From a virus (taxonomy: Duplodnaviria > Heunggongvirae > Uroviricota > Caudoviricetes): 64,000 nucleotides of DNA. A model generated the notes under the pieces. It worked only from the letters and a program-made list of their open reading frames with translations. It had not been told where the DNA came from and did no database searches. The stretch's first letter is position 1, and every line of letters starts with the position of its first letter. Positions 2,763 to 56,332 of the stretch are shown one piece after another. A program made the translations under genes and the position numbers. Location of the stretch: IMG/VR virus record IMGVR_UViG_3300032318_002198. One strand, given 5' to 3'.

Positions 2763-3200
2763 ATGTTCAATCAGGATGTAGATCAAAGATTATCTCTTTG
2801 GTATAAGCATAGGCTTTCCTTAAATAATGATTCAAAACCGTTCGAATCGGTTATAAATTTCTGGAAATCTGCTCCATTTATTGCATTTAATCACAAAATT
2901 GATAGGTATAATTCATCTATTTGGCCCACACCGTGGGAAATAATTGTTTATAACAAATATGATGATTTTACCAAAGCATTAATGATTGGATGGACATTAA
3001 AACTCGGTGAAAAATATAAAAATTCTACCATTGTACTTAAGGTATTAGTAGACATTTCTACTAAATTAACCTATAATGTAATAGTTGTTGATGATATTTG
3101 GATTCTGAATTTTTCAGAATCTTCGATTATTACAGCAGAAGATTTGCCGGAAACTATCTTTATTGAATTTCTTATGAACTTAAATGATATAGGTAAATAA
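2763..3200 (+). CDS. hypothetical protein
   Basis: ORF abutting upstream gene. Confidence 0.6.
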   Translation: MFNQDVDQRLSLWYKHRLSLNNDSKPFESVINFWKSAPFIAFNHKIDRYNSSIWPTPWEIIVYNKYDDFTKALMIGWTLKLGEKYKNSTIVLKVLVDISTKLTYNVIVVDDIWILNFSESSIITAEDLPETIFIEFLMNLNDIGK

Positions 3201-3227: not shown

Positions 3228-5552
3228 ATGATAACAATAGTTAAGCGTAACGGAAAACGAGTTCCTTTAGATATTTCAAAAATTCAAAGACAAGTAGCTA
3301 ATTGTTGCAAGGGCATTGAAAATGTTAGTCCTAGCATGATAGAAATTAAAGCTCAATTGGAACTCCATGATGGAATTACTACGAAAACCATTGATGAACT
3401 TTTATTAAAAGCAATGGTAAATCTAATAGATGAATCTGAAAATTCCGAAATTAATAACGTAAATTACCAATATGTGGCTGGTAGACAAAAAGTCAGTATG
3501 CTTAGAAAAGAAGTATATGGCGATTATAATCCTAAACCATTATACGAAATAGTTAAGAAAAATGTTGAACAAGGAATGTATACTGCCGAACTACTCAAAT
3601 GGTATACTAAAGAAGAATGGGATATTATTGATTTGTTTATTGATCACAATAAAGATGAAAATTATACATATGCGGCTATTGCTCAACTCGCTGAAAAATA
3701 TTTGGTACAAAATCGTGCAACAGGAAAGATATTCGAAACGCCACAAGTACGGTATGCTATCGCTGCGGCAACTGTATTCCACGCAGAACCAAAAGAAAAA
3801 AGATTAAAGTATGTCAAAGAATATTATGAATCGGCTAGTGATGGGCATTTCACATTGGCTACACCTGTGTTGGCTGGCCTTGGCACTACTACTCGTCAGT
3901 TTTCTAGTTGTGTTCTTATTACTTCGGATGATACTCTCGACAGTATATTCGCTAGTGGTGAAATGATGGCAAAATATGCTAGCAAACGTGCTGGCATAGG
4001 GCTTGAAATTGGACGCATTAGACCAGTCGGTGCACCAATTCGTAACGGAGAAATTCAACATACAGGTTTAATTCCTTTTTTGAAAAAATGGTATGGAGAT
4101 CTACGCTCCTGCTCTCAAGGTGGAATTCGTAACGCTAGTTGCACAGTATATCTGCCAATTTGGCATTATCAGTTCGAAGACTTTATTCGTCTTAAAAATA
4201 ATCAAGGTACTGACGAAACTCGAGTAAGACAATTAGATTATGGAGTTGTAGTCAATAAACTATTTTGGCGTAGATATAAAAACAGTGAACCTATAACTCT
4301 TTTTGATCCTCACGAAGTACCCGACCTCTACGAGGCATATTATAGAAATGTTGAACTATTTGAAGAATTGTATATAAAATACGAAAACGATAACACCAAG
4401 AAAAAGAAAATAGTCTCGGCAGATGATCTATTTAAAAATGGCTTTCTCAAAGAAAGAACTGATACTGGGCGTATATACATAGTAAACATTGATAATGTTA
4501 TTAAACAAGGACCGTTCGATACTGAATTAGATCCGATATACATGTCGAATCTCTGTGCAGAAATTTTACTGCCAAATAGACCATTTCAACGAATCGAAGA
4601 CGAAAACGGCAGAATCGCTTTATGCACCTTAGGAAGTCAAAATTGGGGGTCATTCCGCAATCCTCAAGACATGAGAAAGAGTTGCAGATTATTAGTTCGT
4701 TCATTAAGCAATTTATTGAGCTATCAAGATTTCTTATCAATTCAAAGTAAACTGGCAAATCAAGAATTTGAGCCACTTGGAATAGGTGTTACTAATTTAG
4801 CATATTGGCATGCTAAACGTGGATTAAAATACGGAACACCCGAAGCATTGGCCGAAGTAAAAAAATGGATGGAACATCAGTCATATTACCTATCTGAAGC
4901 CAGTGTTGAATTGGCTGAAGAACGTGGAAGTTGTGAACGTAGTAAACATACATGGTATGGACGCGGTGTGTTTCCTTGGGAACGAAGATCCGAAGGCGTG
5001 AATGAATTAACAGATTTTTCACCATGTTTAGATTGGGAACCTCTACGACAAAAAATGATTAGATATGGCATAAGAAACGCCACCTTAATGGCCATTGCCC
5101 CTGTTGAAAGTTCTAGTGTTGTGCTAAACTCTACAAACGGGATTGAAATGCCTATGGAATTAATAAGTGTGAAAGAAAGTAAGGCAGGTAGTTTTGTACA
5201 AGTTGTGCCCGAATACAAACGTCTGAAAAACCGTTATCAACTAATGTGGGATCAGCCCGACTGCATTGGATATTTAAAAACGTCGGCAGTTATGGCAGCA
5301 TATGTAGATCAAAGCATAAGTACAAATACTTTCTATTCACCTAAACATTTTAAAGATGGAAAAATACCAGGAACACTAATTGCAAAGAATTTGATGTTGG
5401 CATATAAATGGGGCATCAAAACGATTTATTATAGCCTAATCTCCAAAACTGACGCTAAACACATATTAACAACCACTCAAAATACATTAGTATCTGAACC
5501 AGTAGTGATACACGAAGATGAAGAGGAAGATTGTATTGCATGTAAGCTGTAA
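3228..5552 (+). CDS. nrdA: ribonucleotide reductase class Ia alpha subunit with N-terminal ATP cone
   Basis: ATP cone (IVKRNG), FSSCVL, SNLCAEI, APVESSS, C-terminal CIACKL. Confidence 0.97.
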   Translation: MITIVKRNGKRVPLDISKIQRQVANCCKGIENVSPSMIEIKAQLELHDGITTKTIDELLLKAMVNLIDESENSEINNVNYQYVAGRQKVSMLRKEVYGDYNPKPLYEIVKKNVEQGMYTAELLKWYTKEEWDIIDLFIDHNKDENYTYAAIAQLAEKYLVQNRATGKIFETPQVRYAIAAATVFHAEPKEKRLKYVKEYYESASDGHFTLATPVLAGLGTTTRQFSSCVLITSDDTLDSIFASGEMMAKYASKRAGIGLEIGRIRPVGAPIRNGEIQHTGLIPFLKKWYGDLRSCSQGGIRNASCTVYLPIWHYQFEDFIRLKNNQGTDETRVRQLDYGVVVNKLFWRRYKNSEPITLFDPHEVPDLYEAYYRNVELFEELYIKYENDNTKKKKIVSADDLFKNGFLKERTDTGRIYIVNIDNVIKQGPFDTELDPIYMSNLCAEILLPNRPFQRIEDENGRIALCTLGSQNWGSFRNPQDMRKSCRLLVRSLSNLLSYQDFLSIQSKLANQEFEPLGIGVTNLAYWHAKRGLKYGTPEALAEVKKWMEHQSYYLSEASVELAEERGSCERSKHTWYGRGVFPWERRSEGVNELTDFSPCLDWEPLRQKMIRYGIRNATLMAIAPVESSSVVLNSTNGIEMPMELISVKESKAGSFVQVVPEYKRLKNRYQLMWDQPDCIGYLKTSAVMAAYVDQSISTNTFYSPKHFKDGKIPGTLIAKNLMLAYKWGIKTIYYSLISKTDAKHILTTTQNTLVSEPVVIHEDEEEDCIACKL

Positions 5553-5599: not shown

Positions 5600-6289
5600 A
5601 TGAATTATCAACAAATATACGACAATATAATAAAACGAGGACAACACAGAGTGTTAACGGAATATACAGAAAGTCATCATATCTTACCTAGATGCCTCGG
5701 GGGAACAGATGAATTACATAATCTTGTTGAATTGACACCAGAAGAACATTATACTTGTCATCAGTTATTGGTTAAAATATATCCGAATAATACTAAGTTA
5801 TTGAACGCCGCCCTGTTTATGACTGCTAATGGAATGGGAAGAAGAAGTAATAAAGTATACGGATGGTTAAAAAGAAGATACAGTGAATACATGAAGGGTC
5901 CAAATAATCCAACTAAGTTAAATGGAACATGGAATAAAGGTGTAACTGGTTATAAAAATAAAGTTAATTTTTCAAAAGAGTTTTTGGATTCAGTTTCAGA
6001 AAGAATGAAAGAAAAAAATCCCTGCGCTGGAGTTAAGCCATGGAATCATCCCAGAGCAACTACATATACTAAAGGTGTCTGGGCAAAGGCAAATGAAATA
6101 AAAGTAATTTGGGAAGAAAATAATAAACCATCATATTGTAAACTATATTCGTTGGTTAACGGCAAAGCAGTTGGCAAAGATTGGGAAGCAATAGGCCCGT
6201 ATATGAATTTAGTAAAATATTTTAGGAATGGTTGGATCCCTACACAAGACACAGAATGGAATAATATAAATGTCAAAACACCAATATAA
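5600..6289 (+). CDS. free-standing HNH homing endonuclease (T4 MobE-like position between nrdA and nrdB)
   Basis: ESHHILPRCLGGTD...NLVELTPEEHYTCHQLL motif. Confidence 0.85.
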   Translation: MNYQQIYDNIIKRGQHRVLTEYTESHHILPRCLGGTDELHNLVELTPEEHYTCHQLLVKIYPNNTKLLNAALFMTANGMGRRSNKVYGWLKRRYSEYMKGPNNPTKLNGTWNKGVTGYKNKVNFSKEFLDSVSERMKEKNPCAGVKPWNHPRATTYTKGVWAKANEIKVIWEENNKPSYCKLYSLVNGKAVGKDWEAIGPYMNLVKYFRNGWIPTQDTEWNNINVKTPI

Positions 6290-6973: not shown

Positions 6974-8074
6974 ATGAGCAAAGCGCAATATGATTTAGCA
7001 GCTAGACCAAACTATTTAAAACGTAAGATGTTTTTAGATCCCGAAGGTCCAGTAACCGTACAGAGGTTTGAGGAGGTCAAATATCAAAAATTACAAAACT
7101 TTGAAACTTTGGCCAGAGGATTCTTTTGGGTCCCTGAAGAAATATCATTGACTAAAGATAAAATAGATCATAGAGATGTCAATGATGCTATTAAACATAT
7201 CTTTACAAGTAATCTTTTGAGACAAACAGCACTAGATAGTATTCAAGGTAGAGCACCTAGTCAAATATTTGGTCCGGTTTGTAGTATTCCGGAATTAGAA
7301 GCATTGATATTAACATGGGGATTCTTTGAAACATCGATTCATTCAAAGAGTTATAGTCACATTATAAGAAATGTGTACGGAGTACCTAAAGATGAGTTTA
7401 ATAAAATTCACGAAACAAATGAAATTATCAGCATGGCTGCTAATATAGGTCGGTATTACGAGCAACTACATATCCTCAATTGTCGTAAAGAATTAGGCGA
7501 AGATATTTCAGTATACGATCATAAACGAGCAATTTGGCTAGCATTACATGCATCGTATGCACTCGAGGCATTGAGATTCATGGTGTCCTTTGCTACTTCT
7601 CTTGCTATGGTAGAGAATAAGATTTATATTGGAAATGGTAATATCATTAGTTTAATATTGCAAGATGAAATTTTACATGCAGAATGGACCGCTTGGATTA
7701 TCAATAACGTATTGAAAGAAGATACTGATTTTGTAAAAATACAAGACGAATGTAAAGATGAAGTGTATAGTATGTATTTAGAAGTTATTAACGAAGAAAA
7801 AGCCTGGGCAGACTATTTGTTTAAGAAAGGTGTTGTAATTGGATTGAACGCCAACATATTGAAAGATTTTGTTGATTTTACAGCATTTACCAAATTGAAA
7901 GAAATAAATATCAAATATTTAGAGGATCACCCAAAAACTACGCCTATACCTTGGTTCAATAAACACACTAATATCTCTAGGAAGCAAACGGCTTTGCAAG
8001 AAAGCGAATCAACTAATTATATCATCGGAGTTATGAGTAGTGATATTGATTTAGAAAATTTACCCGATTTGTAA
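6974..8074 (+). CDS. nrdB: ribonucleotide reductase class Ia beta subunit
   Basis: [27 protein letters not shown] di-iron motifs. Confidence 0.97.
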
Positions 8075-12424: not shown

Positions 12425-12499
12425 GCGCTAGAAGCTGATTGGATAGCCAGAGCCTCTAAAACTCTTGATTAATGGGTTCGAATCCCATCTAGCGCACCA
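12425..12499 (+). tRNA. amber suppressor tRNA (anticodon CTA)
   Basis: GCGCTAG/CTAGCGC acceptor, AGAGC-CTCTAAA-ACTCT anticodon arm, TTCGAAT T-loop, ACCA. Confidence 0.75.
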
Positions 12500-44107: not shown

Positions 44108-44758
44108 ATGTTCTATACAATATACAAGATAACAAATCAGATCAATGGCAAGTTCTATATAGGAAGTCATAAGACCAAAAATTTGAATGACGGATACATG
44201 GGCTCAGGTAAGTACTTAAAATACGCAAAAGAAAAATATGGTATAACAAATTTTACAAAAGAAATTTTGTTCATATTTGATACTCCTGAGCAAATGTATG
44301 CTAAAGAATCCGAAATAGTAAATGAAGAATTCCTCGCAACAGAAAATACCTATAATCTAAAAGTAGGAGGATTTGGCGGTTTTGATTACATTAACGCTAA
44401 TCCTGAAAAATATCTTACCGAAAAAAGATTATCTGCATTAATGCCACAGTCTGAAAGACTTAGGAGGTATAAAGAAAAATTAGATAATGATCCTAAATTT
44501 AGGGAGGAACAGGCGGGACGTATGAAAATCGCTCGAGAAAAATGGTCTCGTAAATACCCGCAAGGTGTTTGGTTAGGTAGAAAACATAGTAAAGAAACAT
44601 TGGCTAAATTAAAAAATTCTGCGAAAGGTAAAGGTCTCGGAGAAAAAAACTCACAATTTGGTACAATGTGGATTACAGACGGAATAAAAAATAAAAAAAT
44701 TAAAAAAGACAAGTTAGTTCCTGAAGGATGGAAATTAGGGCGTGTTTTAAAATCGTAA
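44108..44758 (+). CDS. GIY-YIG homing endonuclease with NUMOD3-like repeats
   Basis: FYTIYKITNQINGKFYIGSH..YMGSG; HSKETLAKL; TATAAATA and RBS-occluding hairpin at 44062-44106. Confidence 0.9.
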   Translation: MFYTIYKITNQINGKFYIGSHKTKNLNDGYMGSGKYLKYAKEKYGITNFTKEILFIFDTPEQMYAKESEIVNEEFLATENTYNLKVGGFGGFDYINANPEKYLTEKRLSALMPQSERLRRYKEKLDNDPKFREEQAGRMKIAREKWSRKYPQGVWLGRKHSKETLAKLKNSAKGKGLGEKNSQFGTMWITDGIKNKKIKKDKLVPEGWKLGRVLKS

Positions 44759-45094: not shown

Positions 45095-45129
45095 GGGGGA
45101 TAGGGACGCTGGGCGTTAACTGGTCTTGA
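45095..45129 (+). pseudogene. 5' half of tRNA-Ser(TGA), broken after the anticodon
   Basis: GGGGGATAGGGACGCTGGGCGTTAACTGGTCTTGA parallels 45741-45775. Confidence 0.85.
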
Positions 45130-45157
45130 CTTGTATAAATACAAGTAGGAGAAATAA

Positions 45158-45739
45158 ATGTATACTTGTAAATATTGTGGTAGAATTACAGAATCAGTAA
45201 ATTCAAATAGTAATCATCAGATTAGGTGTTCTTCAAATTCTGAAAGGTCTGTACAGAGGTCTGCAACCGGAAGACCTCTTGGTACTAAGGTCCTATCGTT
45301 AGTTGGAAAAAAATGGGGTGCAGCAATCAATGGTCATACTATCGAAACTAAACAGCGTTTATCAGTGATTGCAAAAGAACGGAATCTTGGAGGTTATGTA
45401 CAAGGGTCCGGAAGAGGCAAAAAGGGTTGGTACAAAGGATTCTTTTGTGATAGTAGTTGGGAACTTGCTTACGTTGTTTACTGTTTAGAACACAATATAG
45501 ACATTAAACGAAATACAGAGAAGCGACAATATATCTGGCAAGGAGTAGTTAAAAACTACCTACCAGATTTTATAGTTGAAGGAACTTTAACAGAAGTTAA
45601 AGGATATAAGACAGAACAATGGTTGGCAAAGTTAAAAGCAAATCCGGATGTTCGAGTTTTATACGAAAAAGACTTAGAACCTGTACTTGAATATGTTAAA
45701 GGCAAGTACGGAAAAGACTTCATAAATCTTTACGAATAA
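45158..45739 (+). CDS. PD-(D/E)XK (TnsA-like) homing endonuclease
   Basis: Zn-finger CKYC; DSSWEL...YLPDF...EVKGY. Confidence 0.75.
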   Translation: MYTCKYCGRITESVNSNSNHQIRCSSNSERSVQRSATGRPLGTKVLSLVGKKWGAAINGHTIETKQRLSVIAKERNLGGYVQGSGRGKKGWYKGFFCDSSWELAYVVYCLEHNIDIKRNTEKRQYIWQGVVKNYLPDFIVEGTLTEVKGYKTEQWLAKLKANPDVRVLYEKDLEPVLEYVKGKYGKDFINLYE

Positions 45740-45740
45740 C

Positions 45741-45827
45741 GGGGGATAGGGGGCTTGGAGCCTAACTGGTCTTGAAAACCAGCCCACTTAGGGATAGGTG
45801 ATTGTTCGATTCAATTATCCTCCGCCA
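45741..45827 (+). tRNA. tRNA-Ser(TGA)
   Basis: CTGGT-CTTGAAA-ACCAG, long variable arm, GCCA. Confidence 0.88.
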
Positions 45828-45886: not shown

Positions 45887-46438
45887 ATGCTTGAAAATAA
45901 ACACAGTAAATTAATGAAAGAAGTAGTATGTAAATTCCATCCAGAATTTGTTAAAAGTGCCGATCTAAGAGATTATGGTACAAGGTACCCGGAAATTTTT
46001 AATATCGAACGTCTTGTAGAAGAAAGCCTAGCAGCAACTGGAGGCTATAATTTTGTTGACGAAGCTGGTAGAGATTTTGACGATACTGACAATAGCGATA
46101 GCAAAACAACCACTGTCGTGAACAATGACAAAGAGGGTTCAAGCAAAGTCTTCATTGTTAGCAATGTACAAACAAAGATAGGAAGCCTGAGAATTACATG
46201 CTTTAATCCTTTTAGTGATAAGGTAGATTACTTTTATGTACCGTCAGATCAGCGTGTTGTGCTGCAAGAAAATGATGGCAGTAAATACAGAGAACAGACA
46301 GGACATTGCAAGAGAATTAGAACGGTTTGGAGTGAGAAAACTGATTACTACAATAAGTTAGAAAACTTCAGAGTCGGAGATTTTGTTACTCTAGCAACAA
46401 GTAAAGATAAACAGAATATTGACACTCACCACGAATAA
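45887..46438 (+). CDS. hypothetical protein with own sigma70-like promoter
   Basis: ORF; TTGACT...CATAAT upstream. Confidence 0.65.
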   Translation: MLENKHSKLMKEVVCKFHPEFVKSADLRDYGTRYPEIFNIERLVEESLAATGGYNFVDEAGRDFDDTDNSDSKTTTVVNNDKEGSSKVFIVSNVQTKIGSLRITCFNPFSDKVDYFYVPSDQRVVLQENDGSKYREQTGHCKRIRTVWSEKTDYYNKLENFRVGDFVTLATSKDKQNIDTHHE

Positions 46439-46453
46439 ATATATAATATATAT

Positions 46454-46566
46454 TCGACCGTGAGTGGAATTGGCAGACCTCCGAAATTCCTATTATAGGG
46501 ATAAGGGACGGGATACACGACTTAGTCAAAGTATCTTTGTAGGTTCGAAACCTACCGGTCGGACCC
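46454..46566 (+). tRNA. tRNA-Leu-like RNA with aberrant enlarged anticodon arm (no readable anticodon)
   Basis: TCGACCG/CGGTCGG, GGAATTGGCAGAC D-loop, GTAGG-TTCGAAA-CCTAC T-arm, long variable arm. Confidence 0.5.
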
Positions 46567-46593
46567 ATTTAGATCGATAAGTAAATATATATT

Positions 46594-46683
46594 GGAACGG
46601 TCCCATAATGGTATTGGAGAGGATTGCTAATCCTTCGAGTTACGAAAGTAGCTTTCTGAGTTCGAGTCTCAGTCGTTCCGCCA
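46594..46683 (+). tRNA. tRNA-Ser(GCT)
   Basis: GAGGA-TTGCTAA-TCCTT, long variable arm, GCCA. Confidence 0.9.
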
Positions 46684-46691
46684 AACAATTT

Positions 46692-46722
46692 GCGGGTATG
46701 ATGTAAAGGTAACCTGAAACCT
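46692..46722 (+). pseudogene. 5' half of split tRNA-Gly
   Basis: GCGGGTA acceptor strand pairs with TACCCGC at 47262-47268. Confidence 0.85.
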
Positions 46723-46759
46723 ACGGTAAAGTATAAATACTAGTAGGAGATAGGTTACC

Positions 46760-47152
46760 ATGAAAACATATAACTGCGGACATTGCGGAATAGAATGTAA
46801 TTGGGCATATCAAGGCAACAATAAGTTTTGTAGTGTTCGATGTGCTCAAACATTTAGATCTTTAGAGCATAAGAAAAAATTCTTTTCTGGATTGTTAGAA
46901 AAACGAATAGATAGACCAACTGCTAGAAAATATCTAGCAGAGGCAAGAGGTTATAAGTGTGAGGTATGTAGCGTAAGTGATTGGCAAGGCAAGCCTATTA
47001 CTTTACACGTTGATCGTATAAACGGAGATCCGTCAAACGATCGCCCAGATAATTTAAGATTGATCTGCCCTAACTGTCACAGTCAAACCGAATTTCTTGG
47101 TGGTGCTAATAAAGGTAGAGGACGCGGTTCATTAGGAATCGCAAAGTATTAA
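46760..47152 (+). CDS. HNH endonuclease
   Basis: CEVC...LHVDRINGDPSND...NLRLICPNCHSQT; Arg at the usual first His position. Confidence 0.85.
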   Translation: MKTYNCGHCGIECNWAYQGNNKFCSVRCAQTFRSLEHKKKFFSGLLEKRIDRPTARKYLAEARGYKCEVCSVSDWQGKPITLHVDRINGDPSNDRPDNLRLICPNCHSQTEFLGGANKGRGRGSLGIAKY

Positions 47153-47154
47153 AT

Positions 47155-47230
47155 GCGGCTGTAGCTCAGTTGGTAGAGTACTTGCTTGCCAAGCAAGACG
47201 TCACGAGTTCGAACCTCGTTAGCCGCTCCA
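47155..47230 (+). tRNA. tRNA-Gly(GCC)
   Basis: CTTGC-TTGCCAA-GCAAG, TCCA. Confidence 0.95.
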
Positions 47231-47232
47231 AA

Positions 47233-47272
47233 CAAGGTGGGAGGAGGATTCACATTCTCCTTACCCGCTCCA
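47233..47272 (+). pseudogene. 3' half of split tRNA-Gly
   Basis: CAAGGT...T-arm-like GGAGGA/TTCTCC, TACCCGC-TCCA. Confidence 0.8.
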
Positions 47273-47278
47273 AATAAT

Positions 47279-47352
47279 GTCTCTCAAGCATTAAAGTGAT
47301 GTATCAGTCTCCAAAACTGAAGAACGCGGGGCGGTACCGTGGAGAGATGCCA
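47279..47352 (+). tRNA. tRNA-Trp(CCA)
   Basis: TCAGT-CTCCAAA-ACTGA, GCCA. Confidence 0.88.
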
Positions 47353-47368
47353 AAATTATAAATAGAAG

Positions 47369-47845
47369 ATGCGTATCAACGAAATATATTCACCTACTGT
47401 AGTATCCAAGTCAAAAATCCCAAATGCTGGGAATGGTCTGTTTGCAACGGAAAATATTCCAGCAGGAACATTGTTTGTTATAAACCCAATTATCACTATT
47501 AGTGAAAGTGATTGGAATAAGATTAAAGATACAGTTTTTGTAAAAAGAATGAGACTCAGTTGGACAAACAATGAAAAAGTTTTACCTGTTGGAAACATCG
47601 AGTATAAACTTTCTCCTGAAGATATTCCAGTATTTAGGTCAACTGATAGATTCAAAAATGGCGTATTTGTTAGTCCATTTTTACTTGTAAATCATAGTGA
47701 TGATCCAAATAGTGAACAAGTTATCGATGTTGCTCATAGAATGGTAGGATTAAGAGCCGTTAAGTTTATTGAGCAGGGTGAGGAAATAACAAAACGCTAC
47801 GACGGATTTGTTTCCAAGAAATCAGCATCGTTAGATTTTGATTAA
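47369..47845 (+). CDS. SET-domain lysine methyltransferase
   Basis: SKIPNAGNGLFA, VNHSDDPN, GEEITKRY. Confidence 0.85.
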   Translation: MRINEIYSPTVVSKSKIPNAGNGLFATENIPAGTLFVINPIITISESDWNKIKDTVFVKRMRLSWTNNEKVLPVGNIEYKLSPEDIPVFRSTDRFKNGVFVSPFLLVNHSDDPNSEQVIDVAHRMVGLRAVKFIEQGEEITKRYDGFVSKKSASLDFD

Positions 47846-48047: not shown

Positions 48048-48914
48048 TTATTTAGAAATTAAATTTTCTACTTGAGATTTTATAAAATCTACTTCGCCAT
48101 AAAAAAGTGTGTTATTTTTAGAAATAGCATTTAATTTTTCTTGTGAAATTTTTATCTGATAAGAATTTTTTGGATCAAGATATACATTGTATTTTGTTAA
48201 ATAAAAATCCGGAAAATAGCGACGAAGTTTTCCGTTAGAATCAAACCATATAATATGTTTGGGTCTAACCCATTGTATTTGATGTGTGTCTAACCATTTT
48301 GCTATTTCTAATTCCCAGGAAGATTCTAATTTTAAAATCTCATTATTATGCAAATATTCGATAACAATCTTTCTATATGTTGAATTTTTTCTTTGACATT
48401 CAGGAGAACAAGTTTTTCTTAAAGTGTTTGCCCAAAACCAATTAGAACAACAAGCACAATAATTTCCGTATATTTTTGTGTAAGGACCATCTGCTCTAAA
48501 ATAGTTTCTTTGAGTTGATTTAACTTTCTTGATTTTAATAGGTTTAGGATCAATCCCTAATGTTTTAAAAAGAGTTAACCTTTGTTTTTCATAAACAGCA
48601 TAATTTCTATTTTTGTTATTAAAAGATGCATTGCAACTTCTACTACAAAACTTATTTTGCTTTTTATCATACGGCAACTGGACATTACAATTTTTACAAA
48701 GAGAACTATTTTTTAAATAATTTTCAATATTTTTTTCTAATACTTTTTTATTTTTAATTTTGTTATTATTTCTTGCATAATTATTTAAAGCAATAGTGCC
48801 TTTTTTCATATTTTTGATTTGTTCTTCATTGCCGTGAGAATGTAAGAAATGAGAAAAAATTCCTTTACTAGTTGTAAGTTTTTGACAGCAGATGCAGGAT
48901 GTAGGGTAAGTCAT
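48048..48914 (-). CDS. PD-(D/E)XK (TnsA-like) homing endonuclease, antisense
   Basis: Several Zn-finger CxxC motifs; LESSWEL...YFPDFYL...YLDPK. Confidence 0.75.
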   Translation of the reverse strand: MTYPTSCICCQKLTTSKGIFSHFLHSHGNEEQIKNMKKGTIALNNYARNNNKIKNKKVLEKNIENYLKNSSLCKNCNVQLPYDKKQNKFCSRSCNASFNNKNRNYAVYEKQRLTLFKTLGIDPKPIKIKKVKSTQRNYFRADGPYTKIYGNYCACCSNWFWANTLRKTCSPECQRKNSTYRKIVIEYLHNNEILKLESSWELEIAKWLDTHQIQWVRPKHIIWFDSNGKLRRYFPDFYLTKYNVYLDPKNSYQIKISQEKLNAISKNNTLFYGEVDFIKSQVENLISK

Positions 48915-55696: not shown

Positions 55697-56332
55697 ATGA
55701 ATTATCAAAAAATTTATAACAATCTAATAGAACGTGCTAAAAATAGAGTCATTTTAGGATATTATGAGAAACATCATATTATTCCACGATGTATAGGGGG
55801 TAGCGATGATTCTAGTAATTTAATTAAATTAACTCCAGAAGAGCATTATATTGCTCATCAACTTTTAGTAAAGATTTATCCAAACAATCATGCCTTGGCA
55901 AAAGCAGCAGCAATGATGATTCCTGATAGACCAACAAATAAAATGTACGGGTGGATAAGGAAACGATTTTCTATTGCTAAATCTATTGAACAATCCGGAT
56001 CTGGAAATTCTCAGTTTGGATCAAAATGGGCGCATAATCCTTTAACTAAAGAAAATAAAAAAATTAAAGGAAACTTAGCTGAAGGGTGGATATACGGAAA
56101 GTATAAAGACCCGCTATTAAAAATAGATAAAATGTCTGTTCTAAAAGAAAAAAGAAAAGAAAATAGAAAAAAACAAATTGACATTTATAGAGAATACTAT
56201 AAAATATATAAAGAAGTAGAATTTGATAAATTTATAGAAATAACAGGGTATAAAAATTCTAAACAGAATTTGGTTCAACGTTTTGCTGTTCTGTTAGAAG
56301 AGTTTATACCTCAAAACGGTAAAAAAAGATAA
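55697..56332 (+). CDS. HNH homing endonuclease (paralogue of 5600)
   Basis: EKHHIIPRCIGGSDD..NLIKLTPEEHYIAHQLL; upstream hairpin CTGTTAATCA/TGATTAACAG. Confidence 0.88.
   Translation: MNYQKIYNNLIERAKNRVILGYYEKHHIIPRCIGGSDDSSNLIKLTPEEHYIAHQLLVKIYPNNHALAKAAAMMIPDRPTNKMYGWIRKRFSIAKSIEQSGSGNSQFGSKWAHNPLTKENKKIKGNLAEGWIYGKYKDPLLKIDKMSVLKEKRKENRKKQIDIYREYYKIYKEVEFDKFIEITGYKNSKQNLVQRFAVLLEEFIPQNGKKR

Follow-up and report, generated by a model that had tools for sequence, protein, structure and literature searches.

The window analysed here, a 64,000-nucleotide (nt) stretch of the Caudoviricetes record IMGVR_UViG_3300032318_002198 from IMG/VR, carries a tRNA-Gly(GCC) gene that is interrupted in its anticodon loop by a gene for a small HNH endonuclease and by a second, complete tRNA-Gly(GCC). 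We consider it likely that this nested arrangement is a 'disrupt-and-replace' cassette of a free-standing HNH homing endonuclease, whose leader acts as a late switch and uses part of the broken tRNA as one arm of a hairpin. The anatomy recurs in other genomes, the arms of the hairpin covary, and both the open reading frame (ORF) and the leader evolve under purifying selection.

Both halves of a resident tRNA-Gly(GCC) flank the insert

The core of the original prediction for this locus, made from the letters alone, was a tRNA-Gly gene split at the anticodon with both halves kept around an HNH gene and a second, complete tRNA-Gly. All of it is found in place. The 5′ half ends with AAACCT and the 3′ half begins with CAAGGT, the gap between them (46723-47232) measures 510 nt, and the acceptor strands GCGGGTA (46692-98) and TACCCGC (47262-68) are complementary at 7 of 7 positions. 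On the plus strand, tRNA-Ser(GCT) is followed by a 31-nt fragment, a 37-nt leader, a 130-codon ORF, tRNA-Gly(GCC), 2 bases and a 40-nt fragment, and only about 40 nt of the insert are neither ORF nor tRNA. The features of the locus are as follows.

46594..46683, plus strand: tRNA-Ser(GCT), upstream neighbour, given for context (ARAGORN; Rfam tRNA model, 46.6 bits)
46692..46722, plus strand: 5′ half of the resident type A tRNA-Gly(GCC), comprising acceptor strand, D arm, 5′ anticodon-stem strand and first loop base
46708..46716, plus strand: 5′ arm of the hairpin, D-loop/D-stem remnant GGTAACCT plus G (minimum-energy and centroid folds)
46720..46724, plus strand: CCTAC, 5′ strand of the inner helix, made of anticodon-stem remnant and first cassette bases
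46723-46759, plus strand: leader, 37 nt
46725..46731, plus strand: GGTAAAG, older D-arm-like arm at the left end of the cassette (aligns with the paired arms of relatives)
46732..46739, plus strand: TATAAATA, T4-type late-promoter motif
46745..46749, plus strand: Shine-Dalgarno sequence AGGAG
46751..46759, plus strand: 3′ arm of the hairpin, T-AGGTTACC, directly before the ATG (pairs with 46708-16)
46760..47152, plus strand: HNH endonuclease gene, 130 amino acids, ATG at 46760 (PHROG HNH families)
47155..47230, plus strand: complete replacement tRNA-Gly(GCC) of canonical type, 2 nt past the HNH stop codon (ARAGORN; Rfam)
47233..47272, plus strand: 3′ half of the resident tRNA-Gly(GCC), T arm rewritten (alignment to intact tRNA)

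The first 24 nt of the 5′ half occur exactly in 101 IMG/VR stretches, and in 101/101 they form the start of an intact tRNA-Gly(GCC). This intact gene, here called type A, is 74 nt long and has a short D loop. The window is identical to it at 31/31 positions, the last of which is the first base of the anticodon loop, and diverges thereafter; no second copy of the fragment 46692-46722 is present in the window. The 3′ half has exactly the length from C36 to CCA and aligns to type A without gaps, but with only 26/40 identities, as the first 6 and last 11 bases are shared and just 9/23 in between. This difference in identity between the two halves is significant (Fisher p = 1.3e-4). In the related locus L128, the 3′ piece has kept the type-A T arm and acceptor strand (36 identities in a 40-column alignment to the intact tRNA), which indicates that the two pieces in the window derive from a single gene. 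In these phages, tRNA-Gly genes usually have AACAA as their 3′ trailer, so that the 3′ junction is ambiguous by up to 5 nt and the remnant could start anywhere from C36 to G39. When joined, the halves of the window and of L128 lack three anticodon-loop bases (U33-G34-C35).

The 3′ half is not simply decaying, as the pairing of its T stem is kept and extended. Compared with L128, two T-stem pairs are altered on both strands (G:C to A:T and C:G to G:C) and the stem now has 7 base pairs (bp). Through a shared change to GGTGG, the remaining strands of the former anticodon and acceptor stems can pair with each other, and a 14-bp hairpin spans 47236-47270 (-17.8 kcal/mol, z = -3.6). No T run follows this hairpin, and it is therefore no terminator by form. 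The rewritten T arm has no exact match in IMG/VR and none within 3 mismatches elsewhere in the window.

The complete tRNA-Gly(GCC) carried as a passenger at 47155-47230 reaches 66.7 bits with the Rfam model RF00005 (threshold 29), with model positions 1-71 all matched. It is canonical and bacterial-looking, has stems unlike those of type A, and is the sole tRNA-Gly(GCC) that ARAGORN calls in the window.

A tRNA remnant forms one arm of a hairpin over the HNH start

Conservation and folding of the leader point to a regulatory hairpin whose 5′ arm is contributed by the broken tRNA. As had been predicted, GGTAACCT (46708-15) can pair without a mismatch with AGGTTACC (46752-59), its reverse complement immediately before the ATG at 46760, and TATAAATA (46732-39) lies in the loop of the hairpin. 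The further claim that AGGAG (46745-49) is buried holds in part: the motif lies inside the fold, but only its first three bases (AGG) are paired. This pairing belongs to a second helix, in which CCTAC (46720-24) pairs with GTAGG (46743-46747) and thereby overlaps the Shine-Dalgarno sequence.

The hairpin folds at -23.2 kcal/mol (z = -3.8) in an 84-nt segment, and only 1 of 200 shuffled sequences folds as well. Shorter and longer cuts gave -21.1 kcal/mol (z = -5.7; 71 nt) and, for the read-through form, -27.9 kcal/mol (99 nt); in the latter fold, each of the nine bases preceding the AUG is paired. Removal of the tRNA remnant leaves a leader that folds at just -7.8 kcal/mol, and in an RNA beginning at 46745 the whole start region is open. 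Among 16 aligned leaders, the promoter-proximal arm is paired with the bases in front of the start codon in 85.7% of the cells, compared with 31-48% when the partner strand is slid. Four pairs are changed on both sides, and none of 500 shuffles reaches the observed score. Examples of paired arms in relatives are GGTAGAGC/GCTCTACC, GGTAACTTA/TAAGTTACC and GGTAAGG/CTTTACC. The hairpin is real and has the known design of T4 late switches, to which the D arm of the target tRNA, serving as the 5′ arm, adds a new detail. By analogy to T4 I-TevI and segB, it would hide the ribosome-binding site and repress translation of the HNH gene.

The 5′ half and the leader together differ from L128 at 1/68 positions, while approximately 30 differences would be expected if they evolved neutrally (Jukes-Cantor estimate from the synonymous divergence, dS). 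Since dS between the two loci is 0.68, this near-identity argues that the 37 leader bases are under functional constraint.

TATAAATA corresponds to the T4 late-promoter consensus. In the window, L120, L122 and L123, the distance from the motif (T/C)ATAAATA to the start codon is exactly 20 nt, and the motif is aligned likewise in the other leaders. The same succession of TATAAATA, 5-7 nt, AGGAG and ATG also precedes both remaining nuclease ORFs of the tRNA region (44108 and 45158). Indirect evidence for the use of such promoters comes from contigs with a type-A tRNA, in which T4 gp55, gp44 and RegA (about 52% identity) all have homologues. For gp55, homologues were detected in three large contigs with a type-A tRNA (E = 8.6e-24, 2.4e-8 and 1.9e-5), and two incomplete cassette-bearing records, G002 and G006, gave no match.

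The pairing partner was apparently exchanged rather than evolved from nothing

The original prediction also held that the invader had evolved complementarity to the remnant of its target. An A-to-G change and the lineage-specific helix at the junction speak for this, but most of the pairing is inherited from an older arm. A D-arm-like block (GGTAGAG, GGTAAC or GGTAAGG) immediately precedes the promoter in all family members, and it pairs with the arm in front of the ATG where a locus has no type-A remnant. Upstream of the block, L118, L123 and L124 have additional, degenerate tRNA 5′ sequence, and in L121, L129, L136 and L148 a clear tRNA 5′ fragment ends in the block or just before it. Given the presence of the block in every family member, the anti-start arm looks like an ancient tRNA-Gly D-arm remnant that travels with the cassette.

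In the window, the corresponding inner block GGTAAAG (46725-31) forms at most 5 bp with the pre-ATG arm. The ancestral form of the latter is AAGTTACC, as seen in L129, L130 and L120, and because D arms are homologous, a newly acquired type-A D arm would have paired with it at 6/8 positions from the start. In the window, L128 and L117, the three loci that have a type-A remnant, the pre-ATG arm reads AGGTTACC, in which a single A-to-G change (46753) gives 8 contiguous pairs. In L117, the outer arm has itself changed from A to G, which is retained as a G:U pair. The CCTAC/GTAGG helix is made by the junction itself and is lineage-specific. Together this is suggestive, though not proof, of a swap of arms followed by one or two adaptive-looking changes, and not of complementarity that arose from nothing.

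The nested layout recurs in relatives and follows the HNH phylogeny

Protein-guided scans revealed 10 viral and at least 533 metagenomic relatives of the HNH protein, of which 80 were kept for analysis. In 31 of the kept loci and in the window (32 in all), a tRNA-Gly(GCC) follows the HNH stop codon at a distance of 0-14 nt. Both halves of a resident tRNA-Gly flank the HNH gene and the tRNA in L128, L129, L130/131 and L142, and the nesting of the cassette recurs together with a type-A remnant in L117. The reciprocal arrangement is found in L186/L194, where the split resident is of the canonical type that is the passenger in L128, and the passenger is type A. A mirror form, with a full tRNA-Gly upstream followed by the promoter block, the HNH gene and a tRNA-Gly 3′ remnant, is present in L144, L155, L161 and L172. 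The HNH protein of L128 is 92% identical to that of the window, and homology between these two loci extends from base 1 to the CCA of the split tRNA, with unrelated flanks.

Loci with and without the cassette were compared in the neighbourhood of a tRNA-Val(TAC), as the exact empty allele of the window (tRNA-Ser, intact tRNA-Gly and a Trp-like RNA) was not found among the 101 type-A loci. In L032 and L053 the order is tRNA-Val(TAC), intact type-A tRNA-Gly and the downstream gene, while L118 and L123 carry a remnant, the HNH gene and a new tRNA-Gly in the same neighbourhood; L119 shows the same layout. Judged by its flanking SET-domain gene (80% identity), L102 is the closest relative of the window, and it has neither the halves nor the HNH gene between the tRNA-Ser and the SET gene. 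At the place of the cassette, L102 harbors an orphan tRNA-like 3′ end (5834-5905; T arm with a TTCAAAT loop, acceptor strand and CCA) without a match to the neighbouring tRNAs, which may be a relic of another cassette.

In a maximum-likelihood tree of 64 family members, the isotype of the associated tRNA (Gly, Thr or Met) follows the HNH clades. It requires 18 changes on the tree, compared with a mean of 36.8 after shuffling, and 0/200 shuffles are as low. The orientation of the HNH gene relative to the tRNA flips repeatedly. Recurrence, presence/absence polymorphism and isotype-specific clades are as expected of homing endonucleases that would have tRNA genes as targets.

The HNH gene is under selection but lacks its invariant histidine

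The ORF matches PHROG families of HNH endonucleases (best E = 7.8e-26), and Pfam HNH models score just below their cut-offs (HNH_3, 22.9 bits compared with a cut-off of 24.8). It encodes two CxxC pairs and a D-H...N...H motif, of which the zinc-finger Cys pairs, D85, N98 and H107 are conserved in the family. Codon 86 (47015-47017, CGT) specifies Arg, whereas 86/87 aligned family members have His at this position within the D-H dipeptide. Relative to L128 and L117, the exchange is a single transition from CAT to CGT. A search against sequences of solved structures gave only a weak alignment to the HNH domain of McrA (E = 0.4), whose D-H aligns with that of the family; this alignment served solely to locate the D-H motif. 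In HNH enzymes this dipeptide provides the general base, and owing to Arg at this otherwise invariant catalytic position the enzyme of the window is probably inactive, unless Arg86 is an assembly error. The ratio of nonsynonymous to synonymous divergence (dN/dS) of the ORF is 0.06-0.16, i.e., the gene has evolved under strong purifying selection.

A possibly broken copy is seen in L118 (about 2992-3066) and also in L139, where the HNH homologue has an in-frame stop right after its GTG start. The leader hairpin and the passenger tRNA of the L118 locus are intact despite this stop.

Proposed mechanism and competing explanations

In the mechanism that we favour, the leader, the HNH gene and the complete tRNA-Gly(GCC) would move as one unit. 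During mixed infection, the enzyme would cut the uninterrupted tRNA-Gly(GCC) allele of another phage, and recombinational repair would copy the cassette into the cut allele. The insertion would destroy the target site, and the passenger tRNA, whose stems differ, would restore decoding. When the tRNA array is transcribed through the locus, the tRNA remnant at the 5′ end would pair with the leader so that the hairpin closes over the ribosome-binding region. Late transcripts from the loop motif would start near 46745, without the 5′ arms, and could be translated.

Several observations weigh against this explanation. The HNH protein of the window is without the invariant His, and the element may be immobile. 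The 5′ junctions vary among loci (after about tRNA positions 23, 30, 32 and 35), which, though it would fit a repair-based insertion, does not point to one cut site. HNH gene and passenger tRNA do not co-evolve, as the window and L128 combine 92% identical HNH proteins with different tRNAs; the cassette 'unit' is therefore recombinogenic. TATAAATA is not enriched window-wide (14 found, 14.2 expected), and none of six T4 proteins tested, gp55 included, has a match in the 64-kb window. Finally, the 31 tRNA bases of the perfect 5′ half could owe their state either to constraint or to recent re-conversion from intact alleles, and in the latter case not to selection on the hairpin.

A less likely account, but one with several observations on its side, is that the locus is the fossil of an old invasion: the enzyme would be dead (H86R), halves and hairpin would be functionless relics, and the passenger would by now simply be the tRNA-Gly(GCC) of the phage. 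Arg at a position that is His in 86/87 relatives, the divergence of the 3′ half to 26/40 identities when the L128 copy is nearly intact, and the three missing anticodon-loop bases, due to which no tRNA can be re-formed, are all in line with it. However, the ORF is intact and strongly selected (see above), from which it follows that an inactivation would be recent or that the single base is an assembly error. Moreover, leader and 5′ half show a single difference from L128 in 68 positions despite the dS of 0.68, and in the rewritten T stem the pairing is not only kept but extended, two of the pairs having changed on both sides, which is not random decay.

It also appears unlikely, to a somewhat greater degree, that the D-arm pairing is incidental and that control is exerted by the cassette's own inner arm, or by an operator that mimics the homing site and is bound by the HNH protein for autorepression, as in I-TevI. 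The GGTA... block precedes (T/C)ATAAATA in every member, whether or not a larger remnant lies upstream, and is the paired arm in most loci; in addition, the pre-ATG arm of the window is 1 nt away from that of loci without a type-A remnant. There is also a precedent in the I-TevI operator, which resembles the homing site and overlaps the late promoter (PMC2988022). In the window, L128 and L117, however, the inner arm provides only 5 bp (-7.8 kcal/mol), whereas the outer D arm gives 8-9 bp and a second helix (-21 to -28 kcal/mol). The arms also covary with the pre-ATG sequence, which an operator does not need, and in L117 the outer arm, despite its A-to-G change, still pairs through a G:U. The operator and hairpin models are not mutually exclusive, and an operator role is a live alternative or addition to the hairpin.

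We consider it very improbable that the endonuclease had no role and that two neighbouring tRNA-Gly genes were rearranged by ordinary recombination within the array, with the HNH gene merely adjacent. Admittedly, these arrays are heavily shuffled, with widely different neighbours of the type-A gene among the 101 loci, and the anticodon loop and the AACAA trailer are short shared motifs that could mediate illegitimate exchange. Yet the order is nested (5′ half, HNH gene, full tRNA, 3′ half) and not tandem, HNH genes lie 0-14 nt from tRNA-Gly(GCC) in 32 loci including the window, and the clades track the isotype. The layout is found again in other genomic surroundings and around other resident alleles, and an unrelated second nuclease shows the same layout at a tRNA-Ser(TGA) of the window.

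Rejection was clearer still for the idea that the halves are exons of one rejoined tRNA, with the 510 nt as an intron or with joining in trans as in archaeal split tRNAs; we give it next to no chance. It could draw on the 7/7 match of the acceptor strands and on L130, whose pieces give a complete tRNA-Gly(GCC) when joined in silico, so that the insert there lies between the second and third anticodon bases, but the AACAA trailer mimics loop bases and may help this result. The insert consists of ORF and tRNA with approximately 40 nt left over, ARAGORN calls no tRNA in the joined pieces of the window or L128, which lack U33-G34-C35, and the T loop of the window is no longer canonical. An embedded tRNA would also be excised by RNase P and RNase Z. 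Rfam searches of 46300-47500 detected no group I or group II intron and, besides tRNA, no other RNA family, even at E values up to 10, and with neither an intron core nor the anticodon bases a cis-joined tRNA is very unlikely. An assembly artefact is ruled out by the recurrence of the nested layout in independent metagenomes.

Other features of the window

The DNA of the window is AT-rich (GC content approximately 34%) and encodes nrdA, nrdB and several nuclease ORFs. ARAGORN makes 30 tRNA calls, the majority of them in a dense array at 43.6-63.2 kb. No close relatives were found among GenBank phage records, where matches were to tRNAs alone; the nearest NrdA proteins, from phages of Xanthomonas, Ralstonia and Stenotrophomonas, are 54-60% identical.

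At least six homing-endonuclease-type nuclease genes are present in the window. Besides the HNH gene, these include a GIY-YIG ORF (44108-44758), a minus-strand nuclease (48048-48914) and two homing-endonuclease ORFs of a single PHROG family, phrog_655 (5600-6289 and 55697-56332). One of the phrog_655 ORFs lies between nrdA (3228-5552) and nrdB (6974-8074), the position of mobE in T4. A second cassette with a different nuclease occupies 45096-45827 and consists of a tRNA-Ser(TGA) 5′ half ending at the anticodon, a leader, an ORF and a full tRNA-Ser(TGA). Its leader reads CTTG-TATAAATA-CAAG-AGGAG and is followed by the ORF at 45158-45739 (PHROG 'endonuclease'), 2 nt past whose stop codon the full tRNA-Ser(TGA) begins.

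Downstream of the 3′ half, positions 47279-47352 (and 5911-5984 in L102) form a perfect cloverleaf with the anticodon loop CUCCAAA and the anticodon CCA (Trp). This RNA has a 7-bp acceptor stem, discriminator G, an encoded CCA and a non-canonical T loop (GGCGGUA), and is called neither by ARAGORN nor by the Rfam tRNA model; the window is otherwise without a tRNA-Trp call. It is kept in L102, where the substitutions preserve pairing. At 12425-12499, distant from the main array, ARAGORN calls a tRNA with the anticodon CTA (labelled Pyl), a possible amber suppressor.

A possible family of tRNA gene drives

Homing endonucleases are thought to survive in essential genes only inside self-splicing introns or inteins, or else between genes. 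The element described here would represent a third route, open to RNA genes, which is to break the gene and bring a spare. Such a route would explain the mosaic tRNA arrays of large phages, the coexistence of very different alleles with the same anticodon among relatives, and the origin of orphan tRNA halves. It would also offer a clean natural case of a mobile element that has recruited part of the gene it broke as a regulatory RNA of its own.

More tentatively, and with odds that we would put somewhat below even, the small-HNH clades might be isotype-specific 'tRNA gene drives' of freshwater T4-related jumbo phages, with the 5′ half selected as a late-switch arm. Each clade would then destroy one tRNA allele and install the resistant allele that it carries, rival Gly(GCC) alleles would invade one another reciprocally (type B in A here, A in B in L186/L194), and the 3′ half would have been remodelled as a stand-alone hairpin. 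As the family is large, with its at least 533 metagenomic relatives, it may offer natural nucleases with distinct tRNA-gene specificities.

Comparison with known systems

Full-text literature searches brought up SegB with its tRNA association, the T4 late-switch leaders and gene-splitting endonucleases, but no description of a tRNA gene that harbours both an endonuclease and a replacement tRNA. The closest counterpart is SegB, a free-standing GIY-YIG homing endonuclease in the T4 tRNA cluster that cuts within tRNA genes of phages lacking segB and is inherited with linked tRNA genes, which displace the markers of the recipient (PMC2330249; PMC13096335). Both are free-standing nuclease genes inside a phage tRNA array, widely tRNA-associated, and have a predicted hairpin over the translation start, which in segB is without a nearby mapped promoter (PMC2330249). 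In contrast to SegB, which sits between tRNA genes and recognises a generic T-loop motif, the enzyme here is a small HNH protein with isotype-specific clades, its cassette is nested in the target tRNA gene and leaves both halves, a replacement tRNA with the same anticodon abuts the ORF, and the hairpin contains a late-promoter motif.

With the late-switch leaders of T4, a control also proposed for Aeh1 MobE (PMC2988022), the leader shares a stable hairpin that hides the ribosome-binding site on read-through transcripts and a promoter of the TATAAATA type in or over the hairpin that would yield transcripts without the 5′ arm, a design that homing endonucleases use to delay expression. Here, however, the design is deduced from sequence, the 5′ arm is the D arm and anticodon-stem remnant of the disrupted target instead of intron or intergenic sequence, and in this lineage the newly acquired remnant appears to have taken over the pairing from an older inner arm.

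Free-standing endonucleases that split genes, such as mobE in nrdA of Aeh1, mobA in gene 39/60 of T4 and seg in gene 43 of phage 25 (PMC2988022), are likewise inserted inside functionally critical genes with both pieces retained. In those cases the protein fragments reassemble and the host gene works, whereas here an RNA gene is inactivated and its function would come from the spare copy that the element brings. Integrase-driven islands and prophages also target tRNA genes and supply sequence that keeps the tRNA working. Such elements depend on identity between attP and attB and on a site-specific integrase, and no more than the 3′ segment of the tRNA is replaced, while the cassette described here has no integrase, carries a whole tRNA and shows variable 5′ junctions that would fit break repair. 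The proposed mechanism is of a known kind, combining a free-standing homing endonuclease with a T4-type late switch, and the architecture is new.

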